Positions 5,211 through 23,677 of a DNA stretch of 32,000 nt are shown in pieces. Source of the DNA: Candidatus Methanoperedens sp. (GTDB lineage Archaea > Halobacteriota > Methanosarcinia > Methanosarcinales > Methanoperedenaceae); contig JAPZAR010000027.1 of NCBI GenBank assembly GCA_027460535.1, positions 150,001 through 182,000 on the forward strand, in the 5' to 3' direction. The notes under the pieces are model-generated. The model saw only the letters and a program-made list of their open reading frames with translations. It had not been told where the DNA came from and searched no databases. The translations under genes were made by a program, and so were the position numbers. How positions within the stretch are numbered: the first letter of the stretch is position 1; each line of letters opens with the position of its first letter.

Positions 5211-5609
5211 ATGAATATCCGCCGACATAGAGCCATCCGGTTAGTTTCGGTTTTTATTCTTCTTAGTCTGTACGGTTTTACTCTACTGACTACAAGAAGT
5301 ATAGGTAGTGCCCCACCGTCCACACCTGTTGTAACACAGTCAGGTTCTTCTCCGTCCTATACAGATCTAACAACCCAAGTCAATAATTTGCAGAGCCTGA
5401 CAGATTATTACAAAAATCAGACGCAGTATTATCAAAATCTATATGAAAATGAATCACCGAACACCTCCAATAAAAATGTTAACGAAATTCGAGATAACAT
5501 AGTCACAATAAATCAAAATATTCTTCAGGTTAATCAGAATATAGAAGCTATTCAAAATAATATATTTAACTCTAATCAGTTCCTTTATACGAACTTAAGA
5601 TATACATAG
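5211..5609 (+). CDS. Hypothetical membrane-anchored/secreted Asn/Gln-rich coiled-coil protein
   Basis: N-terminal hydrophobic segment (LVSVFILLSLYGFTLLT), followed by N/Q-rich heptad-like sequence. A GGAGAGG RBS lies upstream. The gene is AT-rich. No recognisable family. Confidence 0.45.
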   Translation: MNIRRHRAIRLVSVFILLSLYGFTLLTTRSIGSAPPSTPVVTQSGSSPSYTDLTTQVNNLQSLTDYYKNQTQYYQNLYENESPNTSNKNVNEIRDNIVTINQNILQVNQNIEAIQNNIFNSNQFLYTNLRYT

Positions 5610-5627
5610 AAAGAAAGAATAAAAAGA

Positions 5628-6596
5628 ATGAAAAATGAAAAAATTCAAGAGCAAGTTGTCATAAAATTTTTAAAGGTTTTCAAATATGCTTTATTGTTTT
5701 CGCTCTCAATATACCTGATTACATCTGCTTGGGTTCCCACTTTCTTTGATCTTATTTATGGCGAAGAAGTTATTAATCATGCTATGGCAAGATACATAGC
5801 GAATACTACCGACCCAGATAAGAAAGCTTTAGCAATAATGGGATGGGAAAAACAATACTTTTACAATCCATATTCACTCTATAATCCAAACTCTACCGCG
5901 CAGAAATTTGGAATCTTCAATGTAAATGGAGATTATAGATTGTTTGGAGCTCGACCGGCTCCCGTTTCTTGGATAATCTACTCGAGATTGGCAAACTGTG
6001 AAGAATATGCACGAGTTTTTGTTACTATGATGAACAAAGCGGGTATAGAATCAAGGTTAATCACTGCACCTGGAGAAGATCATGCTTGGGCCGAATACAT
6101 GCACGATGGTTACAGAATCGCTGTAGATCCTTCCCAAAACTATGTAATCGGAAGTCATAAAAGAGAATTTGAAAAGATTATGAGTGTGAAATTCTCGTAC
6201 CTAGAGGCGATAGATCCGCAAGGCAACAAAATAGATGCGTCCGATGAATATATCAAAAGAGGCAATTTAACTATTGTTGTTCTTGATAATGGGAAGCCAG
6301 TTAGCAACGCACAAGTTATGATTCAGAATCCATATTTGATGGAAAGTAGAAGTGACAGATATAAAAAACCAATTCCAGTGCTCCTAAAATCAACGGGAAA
6401 TGAGGGAACTGCTTCTTTTAAACTTGGATATCAAAAATACAATGTAACTGTGAGAGTAAATCACATATACTTACTAGATTCAGTGTACCAAAAAAATGTT
6501 ACAGTTAAAAATGATAAAGAAAATGTATTGGATTTTAATTTGGAAGATGATGAAAAAAATAATGAGTTATTTATATCAAGGATATATGAAAGTTAA
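5628..6596 (+). CDS. Transglutaminase-like (Cys-His-Asp) domain protein with N-terminal TM segment
   Basis: LANCEEYARVFVTMMNKAGIESRLITAPGEDHAWAEYMHDGYRIAVDPS matches the transglutaminase-core pattern (C..[FY]A ... G[IV]..R ... HAW.E ... D). An N-terminal TM helix and a C-terminal beta-rich region are also present. Confidence 0.65.
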   Translation: MKNEKIQEQVVIKFLKVFKYALLFSLSIYLITSAWVPTFFDLIYGEEVINHAMARYIANTTDPDKKALAIMGWEKQYFYNPYSLYNPNSTAQKFGIFNVNGDYRLFGARPAPVSWIIYSRLANCEEYARVFVTMMNKAGIESRLITAPGEDHAWAEYMHDGYRIAVDPSQNYVIGSHKREFEKIMSVKFSYLEAIDPQGNKIDASDEYIKRGNLTIVVLDNGKPVSNAQVMIQNPYLMESRSDRYKKPIPVLLKSTGNEGTASFKLGYQKYNVTVRVNHIYLLDSVYQKNVTVKNDKENVLDFNLEDDEKNNELFISRIYES

Positions 6597-6689: not shown

Positions 6690-6866
6690 TGCGCCGACAG
6701 CGAGCCTGCCCCGCGCAGGTCATGTGCAGACCCGGCACAATAAATCTGCGTTCATCCACGGTTCGTTTTTTGTGGAAGCTCCGGCACACCATCGTTGCGC
6801 AAACTTGCTATATGCGCACATTCCGAAATTCGTTGTCTTTGCGACCTTTGCGTTCTCTGCGATGAG
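6690..6866. repeat. Compact copy of the GC-rich intergenic repeat family (see 12821..13420)
   Basis: tgcagacccggcacaataaatctgcgttcatcc (6725-6757) matches tacagacccggcacaacaaatctgcgttcatcc (12883-12913). The segment acggttcgttttttgtggaagc matches gcggttcgttttttgcggaagc. The 3 x 9-bp run gtctttgcg/acctttgcg/ttctctgcg (6835-6861) matches 13074-13100. Confidence 0.7.
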
Positions 6867-7193
6867 AAGATTAACTCCGCAATGCACACCAGGAGAGCAA
6901 AATATTCATAGACTAAACAAAGCGACAGAGATGACAAAAATGACAACACCGCCGGCGAGCGGCAGGATCAAAGTACATCCGCTGATTACAATATTTCATC
7001 CGCACTGTGAATACTTTCACATCCCTCTCCAAGAATATAATAACAAGCTAACATAGACATATGCAAAATAACCCATAATCATGCCCTCAGATACACCCCT
7101 CAGTACATTCATCAAATCGAAATATGGCTCGCTATTTGAGGAGTGTCTCAGCGCGGTTCACCGGCTCATAGTTGTTATGGAGGCAAAGAACTG

Positions 7194-8507
7194 ATGGCAA
7201 AACACATGCATGAAATCCGCGATCCACTGCACGTTTTCATTCGCCTCGATTCGGATGAGAGGAAGGTACTTAATTCTCGTCCATTCCAGCGCCTCCGATA
7301 TATTCATCAGCTTGGTTTAACGTATCTTCTATATCCAGGGGCAACCCATAGAAGGTTTGAACACTCGCTGGGTGTTATGGAATTGGCTGGACGGGTCTAT
7401 GATACTGTAACTGAGCCATCCAATATATTCCATGAATCCGTTAGAAGTGTCGTACCTGCACACAATTCATATGAACATACATATTGGCGCCGGGTTCTTC
7501 GCATGGCGGCTCTATGTCATGATATCGGGCACTTGCCGTTTTCCCATACAGCCGAAGAATATCTGCTTCCTGATGGTTGGGATCATGAACGTCTCACTTT
7601 AGAGATTATCAGAAGCGAGGAACTGGAATCTATTTGGAAGGAGATCAAGATACAATCAGATGATGTTGCAAAACTTGCCGTAGGTCCCAAGAAATATAAG
7701 GATTCTTCTTTCACGGATTGGGAGGCAATTCTTTCTGAAATAATCGTGGGCGATGCTTTTGGGGTTGACCGAATGGACTACTTGATACGAGATTCTCACC
7801 ATGTGGGAGTAGCTTACGGAAAGTTCGATCATTACCGACTTATTGATACTATGCGTATTCTACCCAAAGAAGAGGATGGTTCTGCAGAACCCGCCCTTGG
7901 CATAGAAGAAGGCGGTTTGCACTCAGCGGAAGCACTGGTACTGGCAAGATACTTTATGTATACACAACTATACTACCATCATGTCAGGCGGATCTATGAT
8001 ATTCATTTGAGAGACTTCCTCAAGAAATGGTTCCCCAACGGATACTTACCCATCGAGATCGAGGAACATCTACGGATGACAGACAACGAAATATCAGTAG
8101 AGTTATTTAAGGCAGCCAGAGACGAAAAACATCCAGGACATGATCCAGCGCGACGTATAATTAATCGAGAGCATTTCAGATTGTTATATCAGAGGAACCC
8201 TAATGATATCGTAAAAAATCCCGAAGCTGGCAAATTAATCTTCGACGAGGCATGCAAAAAGTTCGGTGAGGCAAATGTGAGATATGATACCTACAAGCAA
8301 AAGGGTAGTGGTCTTAACTTTCCCGTACTGCTCTCTATAGATGGCCGCATATCATCATCCCTGGCAATGTCGGAGGTATTAAAGACTGTTCCCATCGTCG
8401 CAGTAGATTATGTCTTTATCAATCCTGATTATCGAAAAGAGGCTGAAAAATGGTTAAAAGAAAAGCGTGAAGCTATAATTACAAAGAAGGAGGGCGAAAA
8501 AATATGA
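7194..8507 (+). CDS. SAMHD1/EF1143-type HD-domain phosphohydrolase (putative dNTP triphosphohydrolase, COG1078-like)
   Basis: Motifs RFEHSLGV, CHDIGHLPFSH and DRMDYLIRDSHHVGV line up with the H...HD...D metal site of SAMHD1-like dNTPases. The ATG at 7194 has a GGAGG box 8 nt upstream. The ORF track starts at the GTG at 7143. Confidence 0.8.
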   Translation: MAKHMHEIRDPLHVFIRLDSDERKVLNSRPFQRLRYIHQLGLTYLLYPGATHRRFEHSLGVMELAGRVYDTVTEPSNIFHESVRSVVPAHNSYEHTYWRRVLRMAALCHDIGHLPFSHTAEEYLLPDGWDHERLTLEIIRSEELESIWKEIKIQSDDVAKLAVGPKKYKDSSFTDWEAILSEIIVGDAFGVDRMDYLIRDSHHVGVAYGKFDHYRLIDTMRILPKEEDGSAEPALGIEEGGLHSAEALVLARYFMYTQLYYHHVRRIYDIHLRDFLKKWFPNGYLPIEIEEHLRMTDNEISVELFKAARDEKHPGHDPARRIINREHFRLLYQRNPNDIVKNPEAGKLIFDEACKKFGEANVRYDTYKQKGSGLNFPVLLSIDGRISSSLAMSEVLKTVPIVAVDYVFINPDYRKEAEKWLKEKREAIITKKEGEKI

Positions 8508-9046
8508 AAAGATTACAGCGTGATGCTGTTATATTATCGTTAATAGAAAATCTCAGGGCAAAAGGAAGCTGGTGCGGAGAAACCCACATTCAAAAGGCAA
8601 CATATTTCATTCAGGAACTGCTTAGGGTTCCTCTAGAATTTGATTTTGTTCTGTATAAACACGGTCCGTATTCATTTGATCTGAGCGATGAGCTAACAGC
8701 CATGCGGGCAGATGCGATCCTCAAGTTACAACCCCAACCACCACCTTATGGCCCCAGCTTTATTCATAGCATTGGTAGCAAATTAATAAAAAAGCGTTAT
8801 CCAAAAACTTTGAAAAAGTACAATCCAATGGTGAAATTCGTTGCAAATAAACTTGGAGATAAAGGTGTTACAGAGCTTGAACGTTTAGCTACAGCGCTTT
8901 ATGTGACTCGTGAAATAAATACGGACAATAGTATTGAATCCAGGGCACAATGTATCCATAAGCTCAAACCTCATGTTTCTCTGGATGAAGCACGTGATGC
9001 TGTCAGGGTAGTTGATACGTTCATTGAAGAATCGAGTGACGTATAA
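8504..9046 (+). CDS. Panacea/DUF4065 (SocA/GepA)-like small protein, translationally coupled to the HD gene
   Basis: Its start overlaps the HD gene stop (ATGA, 4-bp overlap). The segment THIQKATYFIQELLRVPLEFDFVLYKHGPYSFDLSDEL resembles the DUF4065 core pattern (KLQKLLYfaQ ... F.aWkyGPv...). The assignment is from memory of the family consensus, not from an HMM run. Confidence 0.45.
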   Translation: MKRLQRDAVILSLIENLRAKGSWCGETHIQKATYFIQELLRVPLEFDFVLYKHGPYSFDLSDELTAMRADAILKLQPQPPPYGPSFIHSIGSKLIKKRYPKTLKKYNPMVKFVANKLGDKGVTELERLATALYVTREINTDNSIESRAQCIHKLKPHVSLDEARDAVRVVDTFIEESSDV

Positions 9047-9083: not shown

Positions 9084-9179
9084 TCACAACTCCCCCTTAA
9101 ACGCCCTGTCCAGCACAGCCGGCAGCAGCGCATCCAGTTCGGCGCCGGTTTCTTCCTGGAGGCGCCTGAGCGCGTCCAT
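9084..9179 (-). pseudogene. Orphan 31-codon remnant resembling the conserved C-terminal helix of type I R-M specificity (HsdS) subunits; also the left end of a repeat copy
   Basis: The minus strand reads MDALRRLQEETGAELDALLPAVLDRAFKGEL*. A second copy of the tail (..LPAVLDRAFKREL*) ends at 12821. The shared DNA is ctccc..aacgc.ct.tccagcacagccggcagc. The HsdS resemblance (..LLPsILdkAFkGEL C-termini) is from memory. Confidence 0.3.
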
Positions 9180-9233
9180 CTTGTTTGCAGTGCATCGAAG
9201 TATTCGATGATAATAGGAACCACTTATCTATAA

Positions 9234-10157
9234 TTAAAGATGGTTTCCTATATGAGCAACCAAGATTTTGCCCTTATCTATGTTAGGCTTTCCCTCATGA
9301 AAATAAATTCTATTATAATAAAAATGCGTGTCACCTGTTGAGTCGCTTTTACTAAGTTTGAGGTGTGGTTCACAACAAACCTGAACTGGGTTTGAATTAT
9401 CATCAGTAAATACAAAAGTCAACGCTGGCTTCTTGTCTGCATTACCCTCAAGTGAGGCATCAACATTGCACTCAGAGGAAAATCGTCTTAGAGTTTCAAC
9501 AAGATCGTATTTATTGCGATATGATTTGAATTTATCATTAAGTTGAGCTAGATTATAAATTATCGAACCAGCGAACCTTTCCAAACCCCCTTCTAATCTC
9601 CCAAGTGAGATTTCTACATGAGGATGAAAGTTTATCTGTGTAAAATATTTTCTTGCTTCATTATAGAAGTTCAGTTCATCTATAGGATTTTTTGCCAAAA
9701 AATACCTATGAAATTTATACCATTGTTCTTTTGTTTTAATGATAACCGTGGAATCGATTTCATGTTCATCAAGATTAATTGAATGCAAGATAAGTAAACC
9801 ATTTAAATTACTTCCGCTATTTGATTTTACGAGATCAACTACTTCTTGTTCATTCAAGTTACGCGTATTTGCACGATCAAGAAGAATCATAAAAGTCTTT
9901 TTTATATCGTGGGGAATGTTAATGGATATTTCAGGAGTAAATAAAAAATTAGAAATTGTATAATTTTGGTAAATCTCAAGATAATATATACTATCATTTT
10001 TGTATATACAATCTTCATTTATCTTGAATTTGGAATTATGTTCTTTTATGTATTTTATTGTGTTATTAAGTTCTTTAATTTGAGTAATCAAATTATCTAG
10101 AGTGATACCGTCTTTATAAGTAAAAGATGAGTTGAATAAAAATAAATCAGCCCTCAT
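9234..10157 (-). CDS. Hypothetical protein, third gene of the DUF262-ATPase operon
   Basis: 307 aa and very AT-rich. Its start overlaps the ATPase stop (ATGA). No family recognised. The C-terminal motif CEPHLKL...RIYFHEG...GKILVAHIGNHL looks like a conserved functional core. Confidence 0.6.
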   Translation of the reverse strand: MRADLFLFNSSFTYKDGITLDNLITQIKELNNTIKYIKEHNSKFKINEDCIYKNDSIYYLEIYQNYTISNFLFTPEISINIPHDIKKTFMILLDRANTRNLNEQEVVDLVKSNSGSNLNGLLILHSINLDEHEIDSTVIIKTKEQWYKFHRYFLAKNPIDELNFYNEARKYFTQINFHPHVEISLGRLEGGLERFAGSIIYNLAQLNDKFKSYRNKYDLVETLRRFSSECNVDASLEGNADKKPALTFVFTDDNSNPVQVCCEPHLKLSKSDSTGDTHFYYNRIYFHEGKPNIDKGKILVAHIGNHL

Positions 10158-11293
10158 TTCCTTCTACCTTCAAATATATCTGCCAAATCTTTTTCTTCTT
10201 GATCAAAGAATCCATAAGGCCAATTCGACAATTCAGCATTCTCATCCAAAGTAATATGTTGAATATTTGGGTTTTTGGATTTTTTATCAAGGCTAAAAAA
10301 GTTTATGGAAACTAAATCATTTGAAATTAATTTTTTTAAGGTAGCTATTCGTATTCCATTAATCACATGTTCGCTATGTGTTTCTACTATTACCTGAACA
10401 CCCGATGAAGCTATCTGCGCTAAAAACTGACCGATCCTGGATTGACCGCTTGGATGCAGGTGTGCCTCCGGATTTTCTACAATTAAAAGGCACCCCTCCT
10501 CAGCGATTAATCCGCTTACTATAATTGGGAGAACATATGAAATGCCAAAGCCTACATTGTTGGGATTTAAAGGTTTAGTATCTGAATAAGTTCTTCGTAA
10601 ATAATAACCCACCATGTTAATTTGTTGATATAGAGTAGTATTGATTTCGATACCCGGAATAATGTAATTTAGCCAATATTCAACCTGTTTATTTAGGTTA
10701 GGGACTGTTAATTCAACGTCATCAAATCTTCTTTTCTCATTAATTTTATATTCATTATTTTTTTCTATGGTATACCCTGTATACTCTCCTTGAAATCCAG
10801 TATTTGAAAATTTTTGATTGACGATATCTTGTCTGACTCTTGGTCCCAAGCGCTCTGCATTAAGATAATGAAACTCATTCTGATAAATTGATACTGCTTC
10901 ATTTCGATCGACAACTATTCCAACCCTTTGAAATTTTAACACTAATTCTGGACTTTTTTTTGACATTGAATATTTAAATGAGGCTCTTGATGGAGTTTTA
11001 TCATTTATGATAAAAGTTATATCTTCTGAGGTTGCATTTGAAGAAAGTACTTGTGAGGTATCTCCTAAATTCAGAAAATATTCATGATTCAATTGAATGT
11101 CAATTTCAGGGTAATCCTTTAGGTATTTATATTCTGACATTAATTTATCAATCGTTTGCCTAACAATTAGAAGTGCTTGTATCAATGACGATTTTCCCAC
11201 AGCATTTGATCCAGCTAGTATAGTTAGCCTATTTAGATTGATTGATGAGTCTAAGAAGCACTTAAAATTGTTTATAGTTATATTTTTAATCAT
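10154..11293 (-). CDS. ABC/OLD-like P-loop ATPase (AAA_15/AAA_21-like, possible DUF3696-type C-terminus)
   Basis: N-terminus MIKNITINNFKCF. Walker A is GSNAVGKSS. Walker B/D-loop is LLIVENPEAHLHPSGQ. The H-loop is VIVETHSEHV. The C-terminal WPYGFFDQ tail is also present. It overlaps the upstream DUF262 gene by 8 bp. Confidence 0.8.
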   Translation of the reverse strand: MIKNITINNFKCFLDSSINLNRLTILAGSNAVGKSSLIQALLIVRQTIDKLMSEYKYLKDYPEIDIQLNHEYFLNLGDTSQVLSSNATSEDITFIINDKTPSRASFKYSMSKKSPELVLKFQRVGIVVDRNEAVSIYQNEFHYLNAERLGPRVRQDIVNQKFSNTGFQGEYTGYTIEKNNEYKINEKRRFDDVELTVPNLNKQVEYWLNYIIPGIEINTTLYQQINMVGYYLRRTYSDTKPLNPNNVGFGISYVLPIIVSGLIAEEGCLLIVENPEAHLHPSGQSRIGQFLAQIASSGVQVIVETHSEHVINGIRIATLKKLISNDLVSINFFSLDKKSKNPNIQHITLDENAELSNWPYGFFDQEEKDLADIFEGRRK

Positions 11294-12704
11294 AACTAAC
11301 CTTCAAATTATCATCGATAATTTTTTTTACAATACTAAAGGTCAAATCAATTTTTTTCCGATCGTTTGTACCGACAGTAATAGCATCATTGAAACTTTGA
11401 TTAGAGTCCAATTGTATAGCAAATGGTTGTATAAGGCATCCTTGATTATTCTTTTTTGTAATTTCATTAAAATCATAATTATATAATAATATCGATAGAG
11501 TTGTAAATAATGACTTATTGATTAATTGTTTTCGCGCTTCAGGTTTAAGATGTTCGGATTTACATTTTCTAAAAGAGTAGTCTCCAAAAAGGTAGTAAGT
11601 AATATTCATTGCATTTAAGAACGCACTTTTTATTCCGTTTAATGTTAATTCACTTTCTCCTTTATTCAACAATTCTAGAGTATCATCGAGAAATTGGTCC
11701 ATATCTCCTTTATATTTTAGATTTTCATTTCCTAGTTCCTTAAGATAATAAAATCCAATGAATCTCATTACTAGTTCTTGATCTGCCATCCTAATCTTAC
11801 TAATACTTTCACCAGTAGTTTTCAAAAATTCCTTAGAATTGGAGAGATCTTTCAACATATTTCTCACGCGATAATTAGCCAAACAGTTACGAACTTCTTG
11901 ATTGTTCAGCGGTTTACCACCTGTATTGATACGTTTGAAGATTTCAAATTTGACTTTTGGAGGTGTCTGAGGGTCAATTATATTGAAAATTAATTGTGTT
12001 TGTTTTATTCTTCTAAGATATTTTGGATCCAAGCTTTTTGCCCCTTCTTTCTCAAAAAAACACCCGCTACAATCTTCTAAATATTCCAAATTTTTTAATT
12101 TAAATTCATTATTTAAATAATCTTTAATTACTGTAAGTCTTTGTACGCCATCAACCACCTGCAACATTCCTTTTTGATCCTGTGATAAATAAAATACAGG
12201 GAGCGGAATTCTTAATAAAATTGATTCAATTAACCTAGATTTTCTAGTAATATCAGTCCAAACAAAGTTCCTTTGAAAATCAGGAGATAAATCTAAATCT
12301 TTTTGTCTGCCTGTCATCATTTCAAAAACATAACTTATAGACATTGATTTAGTTTCAACCCTGATCAATTCTGGATCATAAGGCTGCGGTTCTTGATCGA
12401 CATCTGCCTCTTCTAACGTATCTTCAATCCCTGCAATTTCACTCTCTAATTTATTTTCTGCAATTGCAATTAAATTTCGCCGAAATTCTTCCTTTAATTC
12501 GTTATGAGAACTCGCTATTTTGTCTCCTTTTTTGATTGAATTAATTTGATTGTTTTTGTCAAGCTTGATGGATATTCTGTATTCATCATCGCTAAATCCT
12601 TCAACAAAGCCAGTCCATAATGTTTCATCAATGCTGCTCTTTTCTAATATCGCTTCTAATTTATTTTCTGAATCCGTTAGTTGAATATTTAGTTTCATGA
12701 TCAA
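11286..12704 (-). CDS. DUF262 (ParB-like nuclease/NTPase superfamily, GmrSD N-domain type) protein with ~130-aa N-terminal extension
   Basis: DLSPDFQRNFVWTDITRKSRLIESILLRIPLPVFYL....VVDGVQRLTVI matches the DUF262 pattern, including the DGQQR-type motif. No DUF1524/His-Me finger is visible. The start may be the ATG at 12698 rather than the TTG at 12704. Confidence 0.8.
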   Translation of the reverse strand: MIMKLNIQLTDSENKLEAILEKSSIDETLWTGFVEGFSDDEYRISIKLDKNNQINSIKKGDKIASSHNELKEEFRRNLIAIAENKLESEIAGIEDTLEEADVDQEPQPYDPELIRVETKSMSISYVFEMMTGRQKDLDLSPDFQRNFVWTDITRKSRLIESILLRIPLPVFYLSQDQKGMLQVVDGVQRLTVIKDYLNNEFKLKNLEYLEDCSGCFFEKEGAKSLDPKYLRRIKQTQLIFNIIDPQTPPKVKFEIFKRINTGGKPLNNQEVRNCLANYRVRNMLKDLSNSKEFLKTTGESISKIRMADQELVMRFIGFYYLKELGNENLKYKGDMDQFLDDTLELLNKGESELTLNGIKSAFLNAMNITYYLFGDYSFRKCKSEHLKPEARKQLINKSLFTTLSILLYNYDFNEITKKNNQGCLIQPFAIQLDSNQSFNDAITVGTNDRKKIDLTFSIVKKIIDDNLKVSYD

Positions 12705-12820
12705 TATGGGCCTTGAATTATATCAATAGTACAATAATTCATGTTTTTGAAATTATACTACATTTCAAAGTTATTAAACCTTCTTATTATATACTGCTTT
12801 TCCTTATTTCATTCATTTAA

Positions 12821-13420
12821 TTATAACTCCCTCTTGAACGCTCTATCCAGCACAGCCGGCAGCGAGCCCGTTCTACACCGGTACAGACCCGGCACAACAA
12901 ATCTGCGTTCATCCGCGTCATGCCCGGCAATATCTACAGCAATATCCACGTATTGCGAAGCAATACGTGTGTGCGCCCTCCAGAGGCGCGACTCTGGGCG
13001 CCTTCATCTGCGGTTCGTTTTTTGCGGAAGCGCCGCAGATTAATAAATTAGTCAATATAAAATTAATCCATCAATCTTTGCGATCTTTGCGTTCTTTGCG
13101 GTGATGTCCATGCTAACTTCCTGCGCCCCTCTCTCACCAAACCCCAGCCCCCTCCGCGCGCCTCCACTGGCGCAGCCGGCAGCGAGGCCGTGTTGCTCCT
13201 TTACAGACCCGGCACAACAAATCTGCGTTGTGTGACACGTATGGCGAAGCCATACGTGAATGCACCGCTCCGAAACCCTGCGGGTTCTCGACTCAGCATA
13301 CGCATATGGCAACGCCATATGCGGATACGCCCTCCCGAGGCGTGACTCGGGAGGCTCGCGACTCTGGGCGCCTTCATCTGCGGTTCGTTTTTCGCTAAAG
13401 CGCCGGACTTTAATTGTTCA
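12821..13420. repeat. Two tandem, diverged units of a GC-rich structured intergenic repeat family
   Basis: Unit 1 spans about 12821-13170 and unit 2 about 13170-13420. Shared blocks are cagccggcagcgag[c/g]ccg, tacagacccggcacaacaaatctgcgtt (12883 / 13202) and gcgactctgggcgccttcatctgcggttcgttttt (12988 / 13358). The units contain several perfect hairpins. Related copies lie at 6690-6866 and 9084-9130. Confidence 0.8.
13074..13100. repeat. 3 x 9-bp tandem repeat (atctttgcg atctttgcg ttctttgcg) inside the repeat unit
   Basis: Read directly from the sequence. A homologous triplet lies at 6835-6861. Confidence 0.8.
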
Positions 13421-20888: not shown

Positions 20889-21007
20889 ATGTATATTTTG
20901 AGAAGAGATGTATTTTAAGGTATCTGCACAAGATTGAAACTGTCTGATCGGCTTTCTTCATTGACTCAAGAAAGCTTTATTATGTATGCATTGCATACAA
21001 ATAAGAC

Positions 21008-21313
21008 ATGACAGAAGTAAGCGTATCTGCAAGGATTCCAGATGACGTATTTAAAGAACTTGAATCCTTTATGAAAGAAGAATCCCTTGAAAAATCTGCC
21101 TCAATAAGGAAATTGCTTGCAGAAGGGTTGCAGCATTGGAAAGAGGAGCGTGCGCTGAAATTATTGGAGGAGGGAAAAGTGACTTTTTTAAAAGCTGCGC
21201 AAATGGCAGGACTTTCTGTATGGGATTTCGCTGATCTTGTACGTGAAAAGGGGGTAGTCTGGGTCAAATCAGAGAAATTTGTGGACTCTGACATTAAAAA
21301 GGCGCTCCAATGA
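21008..21313 (+). CDS. RHH/UPF0175-family antitoxin-like protein
   Basis: The N-terminus is CopG/RHH-like (IPDDVFKELESFMKEESLEKSASIRKLLAEGL). The C-terminus is a UPF0175-like HTH (KVTFLKAAQMAGLSVWDFADLVREKG). The 3' end overlaps the next gene by 4 bp. Confidence 0.7.
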   Translation: MTEVSVSARIPDDVFKELESFMKEESLEKSASIRKLLAEGLQHWKEERALKLLEEGKVTFLKAAQMAGLSVWDFADLVREKGVVWVKSEKFVDSDIKKALQ

Positions 21314-21816
21314 AGCCTCTGATTTTTGATGCCACACCCCTGATTTACCATGGGAAGGCGAACCTCATTGAAAAAGTGAAACGTTTTCCTGAAGATAAAT
21401 ATACAACGAAATCTGTTTATAGAGAGGTTGTGGAGAAAGGAAAAAAAAGTGGAAAACCGGAGGTTTTTTTGATAGAATCTCTCTTCAAAAAAGATGAAAT
21501 TAAAATAAAAGACCCTTCCAATAAAAAATTTGTAGAACATCTAAAAGAAAATCCTAAAATCCATGAAGCTGATGTTGATGTTCTTGCATTAGCTTATGAA
21601 TTAAAGGGCATCGCGCTGATGGATGATGAAGAAGCAAGAGGTATGGCAGAAATAGAGGGAATAGAGCATCATGGGACTATCTATCTGCTTTTGAGAATGA
21701 GGAAACTGAAATTGCTCACGAAAGAGGAGGCTGTCGCTGGTCTCAATGAGATGATACGTATGGGCTGGAGATGTTCCACGGAGCTATATGCACGGATATT
21801 GATGGAGATAAAGTGA
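21310..21816 (+). CDS. PIN-like (DUF3368/COG2405-type) nucleic-acid-binding protein, putative toxin partner
   Basis: 168 aa with an N-terminal IFDATPLI (PIN acidic residue context) and later EADVDVLALA and DDEEAR acidic motifs. The UPF0175 + DUF3368 gene order is canonical. Confidence 0.6.
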   Translation: MKPLIFDATPLIYHGKANLIEKVKRFPEDKYTTKSVYREVVEKGKKSGKPEVFLIESLFKKDEIKIKDPSNKKFVEHLKENPKIHEADVDVLALAYELKGIALMDDEEARGMAEIEGIEHHGTIYLLLRMRKLKLLTKEEAVAGLNEMIRMGWRCSTELYARILMEIK

Positions 21817-23327: not shown

Positions 23328-23401
23328 GGGCTGGTAGCTTAGACAGGCAGAGCGTCGGACTCTTAATCCGACGGCCGTGGGTTCAAATCCCTCCCAGCCC
23401 G
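23328..23401 (+). tRNA. tRNA-Lys (anticodon CUU)
   Basis: Hand-folded cloverleaf of 74 nt. The acceptor is GGGCTGG/CCAGCCC, the D-arm GCTT..GAGC, and the anticodon arm TCGGA-CTCTTAA-TCCGA (CTT). It has a 5-nt variable loop and a T-arm GTGGG-TTCAAAT-CCCTC with one U-U mismatch. The discriminator is G and no CCA is encoded. Confidence 0.85.
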
Positions 23402-23677
23402 CTGATTTTTACGAAAAATCAACTAAGATGAGTATCGATACTCCTATATCCAAATGGAAGTATTACAAAATAAATGAGGACGCAGTTTTTGTATTAAAAG
23501 GCTCCAATAAGTTCTGGTCACAATTGTTTGTTTCTTCAGCACAATGGTTCATGAACATTTTCTAATTTGTTCATCTAAAATCTCATCTCTCTATTTTCGT
23601 TCCATCGACAGCTTAATATATGATAATAAAATAACATTAAGCTGTTAATTATTTTAACAATCACGGAGTGGTGTGAT

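Follow-up and report, generated by a model that had tools for sequence, protein, structure and literature searches.

We analysed a stretch of 32,000 nucleotides from Candidatus Methanoperedens sp. (assembly GCA_027460535.1, contig JAPZAR010000027.1, positions 150,001 to 182,000; hereafter the window), and found that three overlapping genes on its minus strand very probably constitute an intact Menshen (NsnA-NsnB-NsnC) defence operon, carried in the chromosome of this archaeon as a horizontally acquired AT-rich cassette. The locus is a known system in a new host and not a new system, and standard tools such as PADLOC or DefenseFinder would recognise it. An earlier note, made from the sequence alone, had offered two alternatives for the operon: that it was related to Menshen/NsnABC, as an archaeal version, or that its third gene marked a distinct system. 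The first was borne out by all three proteins, which matched the PADLOC models for NsnA, NsnB and NsnC over nearly their full length.

The three proteins match the Menshen models

The first protein matched the PADLOC NsnA model nearly end to end (1.4e-115), the second matched the NsnB model over its full length (8.8e-111), and the third matched the NsnC model PDLC03899 at 3e-76 over profile positions 1-299 of 299, with three further NsnC models also matching. The next-best PADLOC systems were PD-T4-2_A for NsnA (1.9e-36), and HEC-03B (3.8e-39) and AriA (3.7e-34) for NsnB. In Pfam, GmrSD_N (DUF262) was found in NsnA (8e-23), and AAA_15 (7e-29) together with DUF3696 (1.4e-11) in NsnB. NCBIfam had no specific model for the three proteins, and the third protein, of 307 amino acids (aa), had no match in Pfam or NCBIfam. 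The earlier statement that this protein has no recognisable domain therefore held for these two databases, but not for PADLOC, where four NsnC models recognised it. Because the best of these matches covers the whole profile, the "unknown" third gene is nsnC and defines no new system, so the second alternative of the earlier note was not upheld. All three genes fit a system already described, which takes away the novelty and leaves the likely function in place.

The hallmarks of Menshen are described in PMC12065111, a comparative survey, as QRxxxW, DGxQR and FxxxN in NsnA, and as Walker A, Walker B, GxG and the H motif in NsnB, where the Walker B has EN for DE and GxG replaces SGG. The window NsnA carries FQRNFVW (QRxxxW) at aa 141, VDGVQR (DGxQR) at aa 182 and FKRIN (FxxxN) at aa 254, all three invariant or nearly so in 43 homologues. 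The window NsnB carries Walker A GSNAVGKS at aa 28, GFG (GxG) at aa 248, Walker B LLIVEN at aa 269 and the H motif ETHSEH at aa 304; its Walker B has EN and not DE, it has GxG and not SGG, and the DUF3696 tail is present. All the hallmark motifs of NsnA and NsnB are thus found, which supports membership of the family. Every motif listed in the earlier note could be located as well (FQRNFVW, VDGVQR, GSNAVGKS, LLIVEN, ETHSEH, WPYGFFDQ, CEPHLKL, RIYFHEG and ILVAHIGNHL), and its description of DUF262 hallmarks lacking a DUF1524 half agreed with Pfam, which found GmrSD_N only in the first gene. The prototype of the family, from Solibacillus silvestris StLB046, shares the three genes, their order and the domain set, with ParB-DUF262 and a helical DNA-binding domain in NsnA, an ATPase with EN Walker B, GxG and DUF3696 tail as NsnB, and a two-domain NsnC ending in a His-Arg-His domain. 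Anti-phage activity that is lost on mutation of the DUF262 gene has been reported for it.

Organisation and composition of the operon

The list of open reading frames (ORFs) and their coordinates agreed with three minus-strand genes overlapping by 8 and 4 bp, as had been noted before: nsnA and nsnB share positions 11286-11293, and nsnB and nsnC share 10154-10157 (ATGA). A GAAGGT-type ribosome-binding-like motif can be read 5-12 nt ahead of each internal ATG (Table 1). Given these overlaps and internal GAAGG motifs, nsnA, nsnB and nsnC are probably translated in a coupled manner. The mechanical ORF start of nsnA is a TTG at 12704, two codons 5' of the ATG at 12698, which is the start chosen by the gene callers in five independent assemblies. 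The longest stop-free stretch comprised 472 codons, whereas in 300 shuffles of the segment it averaged 86 and reached 145 at most; since the observed length lies far above the shuffles, the three ORFs are not due to chance.

The G+C content was 0.29-0.32 over 9.5-12.5 kb against 0.45-0.55 in the flanks, and 0.309 for the operon against 0.491 for the core flanks, in line with the AT-richness described in the earlier note. The sequence was identical in five assemblies from different samples, among them GCA_027460495.1, in which the identical NsnC is labelled "MAG: Candidatus Methanoperedens sp." (MAG, metagenome-assembled genome). Other genes of the window are chromosomal housekeeping genes, namely those for arginyl-tRNA synthetase, anaerobic ribonucleotide reductase, M42 peptidase, branched-chain amino acid synthesis and HMG-CoA reductase.

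Table 1 Features of the Menshen cassette, in window coordinates
Feature	Position	Strand	Remarks
nsnA	11286..12698	-	470 aa from ATG 12698; ORF 11286..12704 (472 aa) if TTG start
Extra N-terminal domain of NsnA (aa 1-90)	12429..12698	-	AlphaFold2 model; predicted local distance difference test (pLDDT) ~90 over aa 1-70
nsnB	10154..11293	-	379 aa; ATP-binding cassette (ABC)-type ATPase (AAA_15) with DUF3696 tail; predicted signal transducer that would hold and regulate NsnC
nsnC	9234..10157	-	307 aa; predicted effector
GAAGGT ribosome-binding-like motif	11299..11304	-	within the end of nsnA, 5 nt before the nsnB ATG
GAAGGTAGAAGGA ribosome-binding-like motif	10159..10171	-	within the end of nsnB, just 5' of the nsnC ATG
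AT-rich upstream region, presumed promoter	12699..12824	-	TATA-like stretches, e.g. TTGATATAATT, ~20-30 nt before the ATG; read from sequence
hsdS 3'-end remnant, 121 bp	9091..9211	-	directly downstream of nsnC; reads ...MDALRRLQEETGAELDALLPAVLDRAFKGEL and stop; 81% identical to the hsdS 3' end of L088
Shorter hsdS-tail remnant, 39 nt	12825..12863	-	just upstream of nsnA; reads ...LPAVLDRAFKREL and stop

Relatives and host range

A scan with an NsnC profile over one genome per GTDB species returned 59 loci. All three genes stood in the same A-B-C order at 41 of them, and NsnB lay directly upstream of NsnC at 52; half of the 18 loci without a detected NsnA (9/18) were cut by a contig end. Most of the 59 loci came from Bacteroidota, and relatives from Bacillota, including Lysinibacillus and Paenibacillus, aligned near full length.

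Two Methanosarcinales MAGs (L006 and L009) carry cassettes whose proteins are 67-68% (NsnA), 73-74% (NsnB) and 51-53% (NsnC) identical to those of the window. The cassette lies beside aEF-1alpha, aEF-2, S7 and an IS110 transposase in L006 and beside MTHFR in L009, while in a metagenome contig with archaeal-looking neighbours (L071) it lies beside MutS/MutL, cobalamin genes and a DDE transposase fragment. These three loci and the window formed one clade in a neighbour-joining tree of NsnB, nested within bacterial sequences, and the next relatives of this clade were metagenomic loci, followed by Arcticibacterium and Cytophagales. The simplest reading of this tree would be transfer from bacteria and then spread among Methanosarcinales.

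In 42 of 43 related loci the operon exceeded its flanks in AT content. AT-richness was considered as a mark specific to the archaeal host and was rejected, since these related loci show the same bias. Paired DUF262 and DUF3696 genes were likewise carried by 30 bacterial plasmids and two Vibrio phages. Among the IMG/VR viral contigs, NsnA had only remote relatives (36-43% identity), and no carrier was an archaeal virus. A further relative, on an ENA contig (contig_9038, L080) and with an NsnA 66% identical to that of the window, sits within a BREX locus between a PglX-type methyltransferase and later genes, with ParE toxin and transposase genes nearby.

Both the prototype and the text of the survey of 1997 Menshen loci (PMC12065111) concern bacterial hosts only, whereas the operon of the window is archaeal. 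A literature search found no paper reporting Menshen in archaea. The new points of the present locus are the archaeal host, the bracketing by hsdS tails and the mosaic structure, of which the latter two are described below.

History of the cassette

The nearest relative, on an ENA contig (L088), showed 84.9% DNA identity over window positions 9084-12701. There the cassette follows immediately after a type I restriction-modification operon composed of hsdR, hsdM, a DUF1016 gene and hsdS, and an intact hsdS (Pfam Methylase_S), whose C-terminus reads ...VDALRRLQAETGAELDALLPAVLDKAFKGELV, precedes nsnA. This position matches the linkage reported in PMC12065111, where Menshen is described as frequently associated with restriction-modification and BREX systems. 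The restriction-modification genes of L088 are gone from the window and two hsdS remnants remain, one on each side of the cassette (Table 1); L088 carries the same hsdS-tail remnant after its own nsnC. Pfam found nothing in these short hsdS-like remnants, and their identity was settled by aligning them with the complete L088 hsdS. By these alignments the cassette was shown to have been formerly linked to a type I restriction-modification operon.

Positions 12825-12863 and 9088-9126 form a 39-nt direct repeat, 90% identical, which brackets the AT-rich cassette. The 16-mer CAGCACAGCCGGCAGC occurs in the window at these two repeat sites only, with 0 occurrences expected by chance. Such repeats would be left if the cassette had inserted in Campbell fashion through homology with the hsdS tail, which may have been its route. 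Exact-protein look-ups of the M42 peptidase and of the neighbouring 180-aa protein returned no 'empty site', that is, the same strain lacking the cassette; the contigs merely break at repeats.

DNA identity to L088 was a mosaic, with 70-80% across the greater part of nsnA (0.87 in a single 150-nt segment) and 84-95% over nsnB, nsnC and the tail, and the break fell near the nsnA/nsnB junction. At the protein level, NsnA was 72% identical, and NsnB and NsnC were 87% each. The mosaic fits an exchange of nsnA independently of nsnB-nsnC. A broader proposal is possible, and we offer it tentatively: the window, the two Methanosarcinales genomes and the archaeal-looking contig might represent an archaeal Menshen lineage active in Methanosarcinales against archaeal viruses or other foreign elements, whose cassette would dock at the conserved 3' ends of type I restriction-modification hsdS genes and leave hsdS-tail direct repeats on either side, and in which nsnA would be exchanged independently of nsnB-nsnC.

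It appears unlikely that the cassette came from bacteria and is now a silent or decaying passenger in the archaeon, unexpressed or non-functional with archaeal transcription or viruses. Its G+C content is far from that of the host (0.31 against 0.49), and the loss of the type I restriction-modification genes seen in L088, with hsdS remnants left behind, would suit such a fate; however, the three ORFs are intact and carry every catalytic motif, their sequence is identical in the five assemblies from different samples, and the same AT bias is normal for bacterial Menshen. Cassettes with 67-74% identical NsnA and NsnB at three other archaeal chromosomal sites also argue for maintenance in archaea.

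Predicted roles of the three proteins

The AlphaFold2 model of NsnA, built on 43 homologues, reached a pLDDT of 87 and was divided into a sheet-plus-helix part (aa 1-89), a ParB-DUF262 domain (aa ~105-275) and a helical ParBDB-like C-terminal domain (aa ~276-470), the region of aa 266-464 being all-helical in the model. No DUF1524 nuclease domain was found in NsnA by Pfam, and its C-terminal half is modelled as helical. The top Foldseek matches of the model were BrxU (7p9k, E 1.5e-4), SspE and ParB N-domains. NsnA is the predicted sensor.

The extra N-terminal domain of NsnA lies outside the PADLOC NsnA profile, whose match begins at aa 71 of the 472-aa ORF (~aa 69 when counted from ATG 12698). 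It is modelled as five strands (2-7, 13-20, 27-32, 41-46 and 52-57) followed by a 25-residue helix (65-89), and its residues W28, L18, I61 and F72 are conserved in the 43 homologues, which include Bacillota, Nitrospirota and others. In PMC12065111 the PS-BH sensor domains of type II Menshen are described as a 'curved sheet followed by a helix', and the topology modelled here appears to fit these domains. The prototype lacks this sheet-plus-helix domain, and the window NsnA looks like that of a 'type II' Menshen.

For NsnB, the predicted transducer, no Toprim domain was detected by Pfam, and GajA profiles were matched in part only.

The AlphaFold2 model of NsnC, the predicted effector, had a pLDDT of 94 and a predicted template modelling score (pTM) of 0.90. 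It consists of an N-terminal alpha/beta domain (aa 1-~232, window 9462-10157) and a C-terminal helix-plus-sheet domain (aa ~233-307, window 9237-9461), the latter modelled as a helix (240-246) and five strands. In an alignment of 44 sequences, the invariant residues of the C-terminal domain included C262, E263, H265, R283 and H306. According to PMC12065111, the commonest Menshen effector domain, PB-BECR1, has a His-Arg-His triad and combines a helix with an antiparallel sheet in a RelE/YafQ-like ribonuclease (RNase) fold. H265, R283 and H306 of NsnC would correspond to the triad described for PB-BECR1, and a role as an RNase is proposed. The N-terminal domain showed no invariant acidic tetrad in the 44 homologues, which fits an inactive PIN-like domain. 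The PADLOC NsnC model PDLC03879 matched the window NsnC from aa 156 onwards only; judging from its number, which stands beside those of the NsnA and NsnB models, we guess that PDLC03879 is the prototype-like model, and this would suggest a different inPIN family in the window NsnC.

Proposed mechanism

The mechanism proposed for this locus is taken from the Menshen literature and related systems. In PMC12065111 a sensor-transducer-effector model is set out together with a predicted NsnB4-NsnC2 complex. Following it, NsnA would bind invading DNA by means of three domains, namely the ParB-DUF262 nucleoside triphosphatase (NTPase), the helical DNA-binding domain and the additional sheet-plus-helix domain at its N-terminus, and DNA-bound NsnA would activate the ABC ATPase NsnB. 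The predicted NsnB tetramer would clamp the N-terminal domain of NsnC between its DUF3696 tails, and binding or hydrolysis of ATP by NsnB would then release NsnC or switch it on. The C-terminal His-Arg-His domain of NsnC, the proposed RelE/YafQ-like BECR RNase, would cut RNA, and this cleavage may destroy viral transcripts or, by attacking host RNA, shut down the infected cell in an abortive infection.

Several points weigh against this account and against an active defence system at the locus. Searching PDB and BFVD with the full NsnC model, Foldseek returned no match at E < 0.1; the weak, non-significant matches were VapC11 (E ~2) and phage RNase H and 5'-3' exonucleases (E 0.3-1). A hidden Markov model of the NsnC C-terminal domain likewise gave no matches among PDB sequences, nor in Pfam to E 10. 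The PIN-like and BECR folds of NsnC are thus suggested by likeness to the literature and lack an independent structural match. Protection is known for the bacterial prototype, whereas this locus, like any archaeal Menshen, is known from its sequence, and expression in the archaeal host is suggested by the intact ORFs, the conserved motifs and the AT-rich upstream DNA.

The operon could also act on DNA in the manner of a restriction system, as GmrSD, BrxU, SspE or the OLD/Gabija nucleases do, in place of cleaving RNA, and we give this only a slim chance. NsnA shares with GmrSD, BrxU and SspE the DUF262 NTPase sensor, its three motifs and the helical DNA-binding domain, and BrxU and SspE are the nearest structures to its model. 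NsnB scores between 1e-14 and 1e-34 against the profiles of GajA, AriA, PtuA and Old, and older reviews class the Menshen ATPase as an OLD-family protein. However, in GmrSD, BrxU and SspE the DUF1524 His-Me nuclease resides in the same polypeptide, whereas the window NsnA has no such domain and the effector would be a separate protein reached through the ATPase; with no Toprim domain in NsnB by Pfam either, the His-Arg-His domain of NsnC is left as the sole candidate for a catalytic centre, and PMC12065111 places this domain in the RelE/YafQ-type RNase superfamily.

Comparison with other defence systems

Septu (PtuAB), PARIS (AriAB) and Gabija (GajAB) contain an AAA_15-type ABC ATPase that is thought to hold and regulate a toxic effector, as is predicted for NsnB, and the predicted NsnB-NsnC arrangement is described in PMC12065111 as resembling the complexes of these systems. 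Besides AriA, NsnB matched the PADLOC profiles of GajA and PtuA at 1e-14 to 1e-20. NsnABC departs from these systems in that its ATPase lacks a Toprim domain, its effector is of neither the HNH nor the Toprim kind, and it has a separate DUF262 sensor. In OLD proteins and in GajA the AAA_15 domain is fused to Toprim, whereas NsnB has 379 aa and ends in DUF3696.

The matches of NsnA to PD-T4-2_A and of NsnB to HEC-03B are 70-80 orders of magnitude weaker than those to the Nsn models, and neither PD-T4-2 nor HEC-03 has the three-gene architecture of NsnABC. In HEC-03 the partner of the ABC ATPase is a PIN-domain protein, reminiscent of the PIN-like fold proposed for the N-terminus of NsnC. A distinct new three-gene system that shares only its DUF262 and ABC ATPase modules with Menshen and has a novel third gene is very improbable: the 307-aa protein has no Pfam or NCBIfam family and no significant Foldseek match, but it is recognised by four PADLOC NsnC models, with the best match spanning the entire profile, its homologues follow NsnB in 52 of 59 loci, Bacillota included, and it carries the His-Arg-His triad of the commonest Menshen effector domain.

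Surroundings of the cassette and other features of the window

A GC-rich dispersed repeat of ~250-330 nt with internal hairpins (e.g. CACGTATTGCGAAGCAATACGTG) was observed at window positions 6693-6870, 12864-13113 and 13150-13420. It stands between modules of the island to which the cassette belongs, with two tandem copies between the Menshen cassette and the core genes, and its first bases (GCACAGCCGGCAGCGAG) overlap the hsdS-tail remnant. A scan of metagenomes recovered the repeat only from two otherwise unrelated contigs (L086 and L087), with several copies in each; independent assemblies of the window strain break at its copies, and it had no match in Rfam at the gathering threshold.

Convergent with nsnC lies a plus-strand gene pair, 7143-8507 and 8504-9046, with a 4-bp overlap. 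The product of the first gene is an HD and HD_assoc_2 protein with weak dGTPase-like matches. The second encodes a protein of 180 aa that weakly resembles PDC-M19A and, in PADLOC (8e-10) and NCBIfam (9e-9), the C-terminal portion of the antitoxin DarG. The corresponding slot of L088 holds a 251-aa protein and a DUF488 protein. This part of the island thus seems to be a variable module, and the pair may be a further defence or toxin-antitoxin unit. Another plus-strand pair, at 5211-6596, is AT-rich (G+C 0.34-0.36) and encodes a 132-aa protein without family assignment as well as a transglutaminase-core protein of 322 aa. Its DNA shares 68% identity with the far end of the L088 island, so the pair is a conserved component of the island.

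On the other side of the cassette, positions ~21005-21816 (plus strand) encode a UPF0175 and PIN/DUF3368 pair, a VapBC-like toxin-antitoxin module whose PIN protein matches the PADLOC candidate PDC-S70 (2e-14). A tRNA-Lys gene (CTT; 23328-23402) is followed by a second AT-rich patch reaching to 25247 (G+C 0.33-0.36). The patch holds one gene for a 141-aa protein without family assignment and another for a radical SAM/SPASM protein that weakly resembles viperin models. This viperin-like similarity probably arises through the generic radical SAM core, and the patch may be another island, inserted at the tRNA gene.

Significance of an archaeal Menshen locus

These results reveal neither a new kind of system nor a new mechanism. 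The locus is a compact example of how such a cassette travels, being AT-rich, linked to type I restriction-modification, marked by remnants of hsdS 3' ends, and a mosaic of sensor versus transducer-effector parts. It extends Menshen, very probably in intact form, to archaea, and there to the methane-oxidising Methanoperedens lineage, a group currently of interest for its viruses and extrachromosomal elements.

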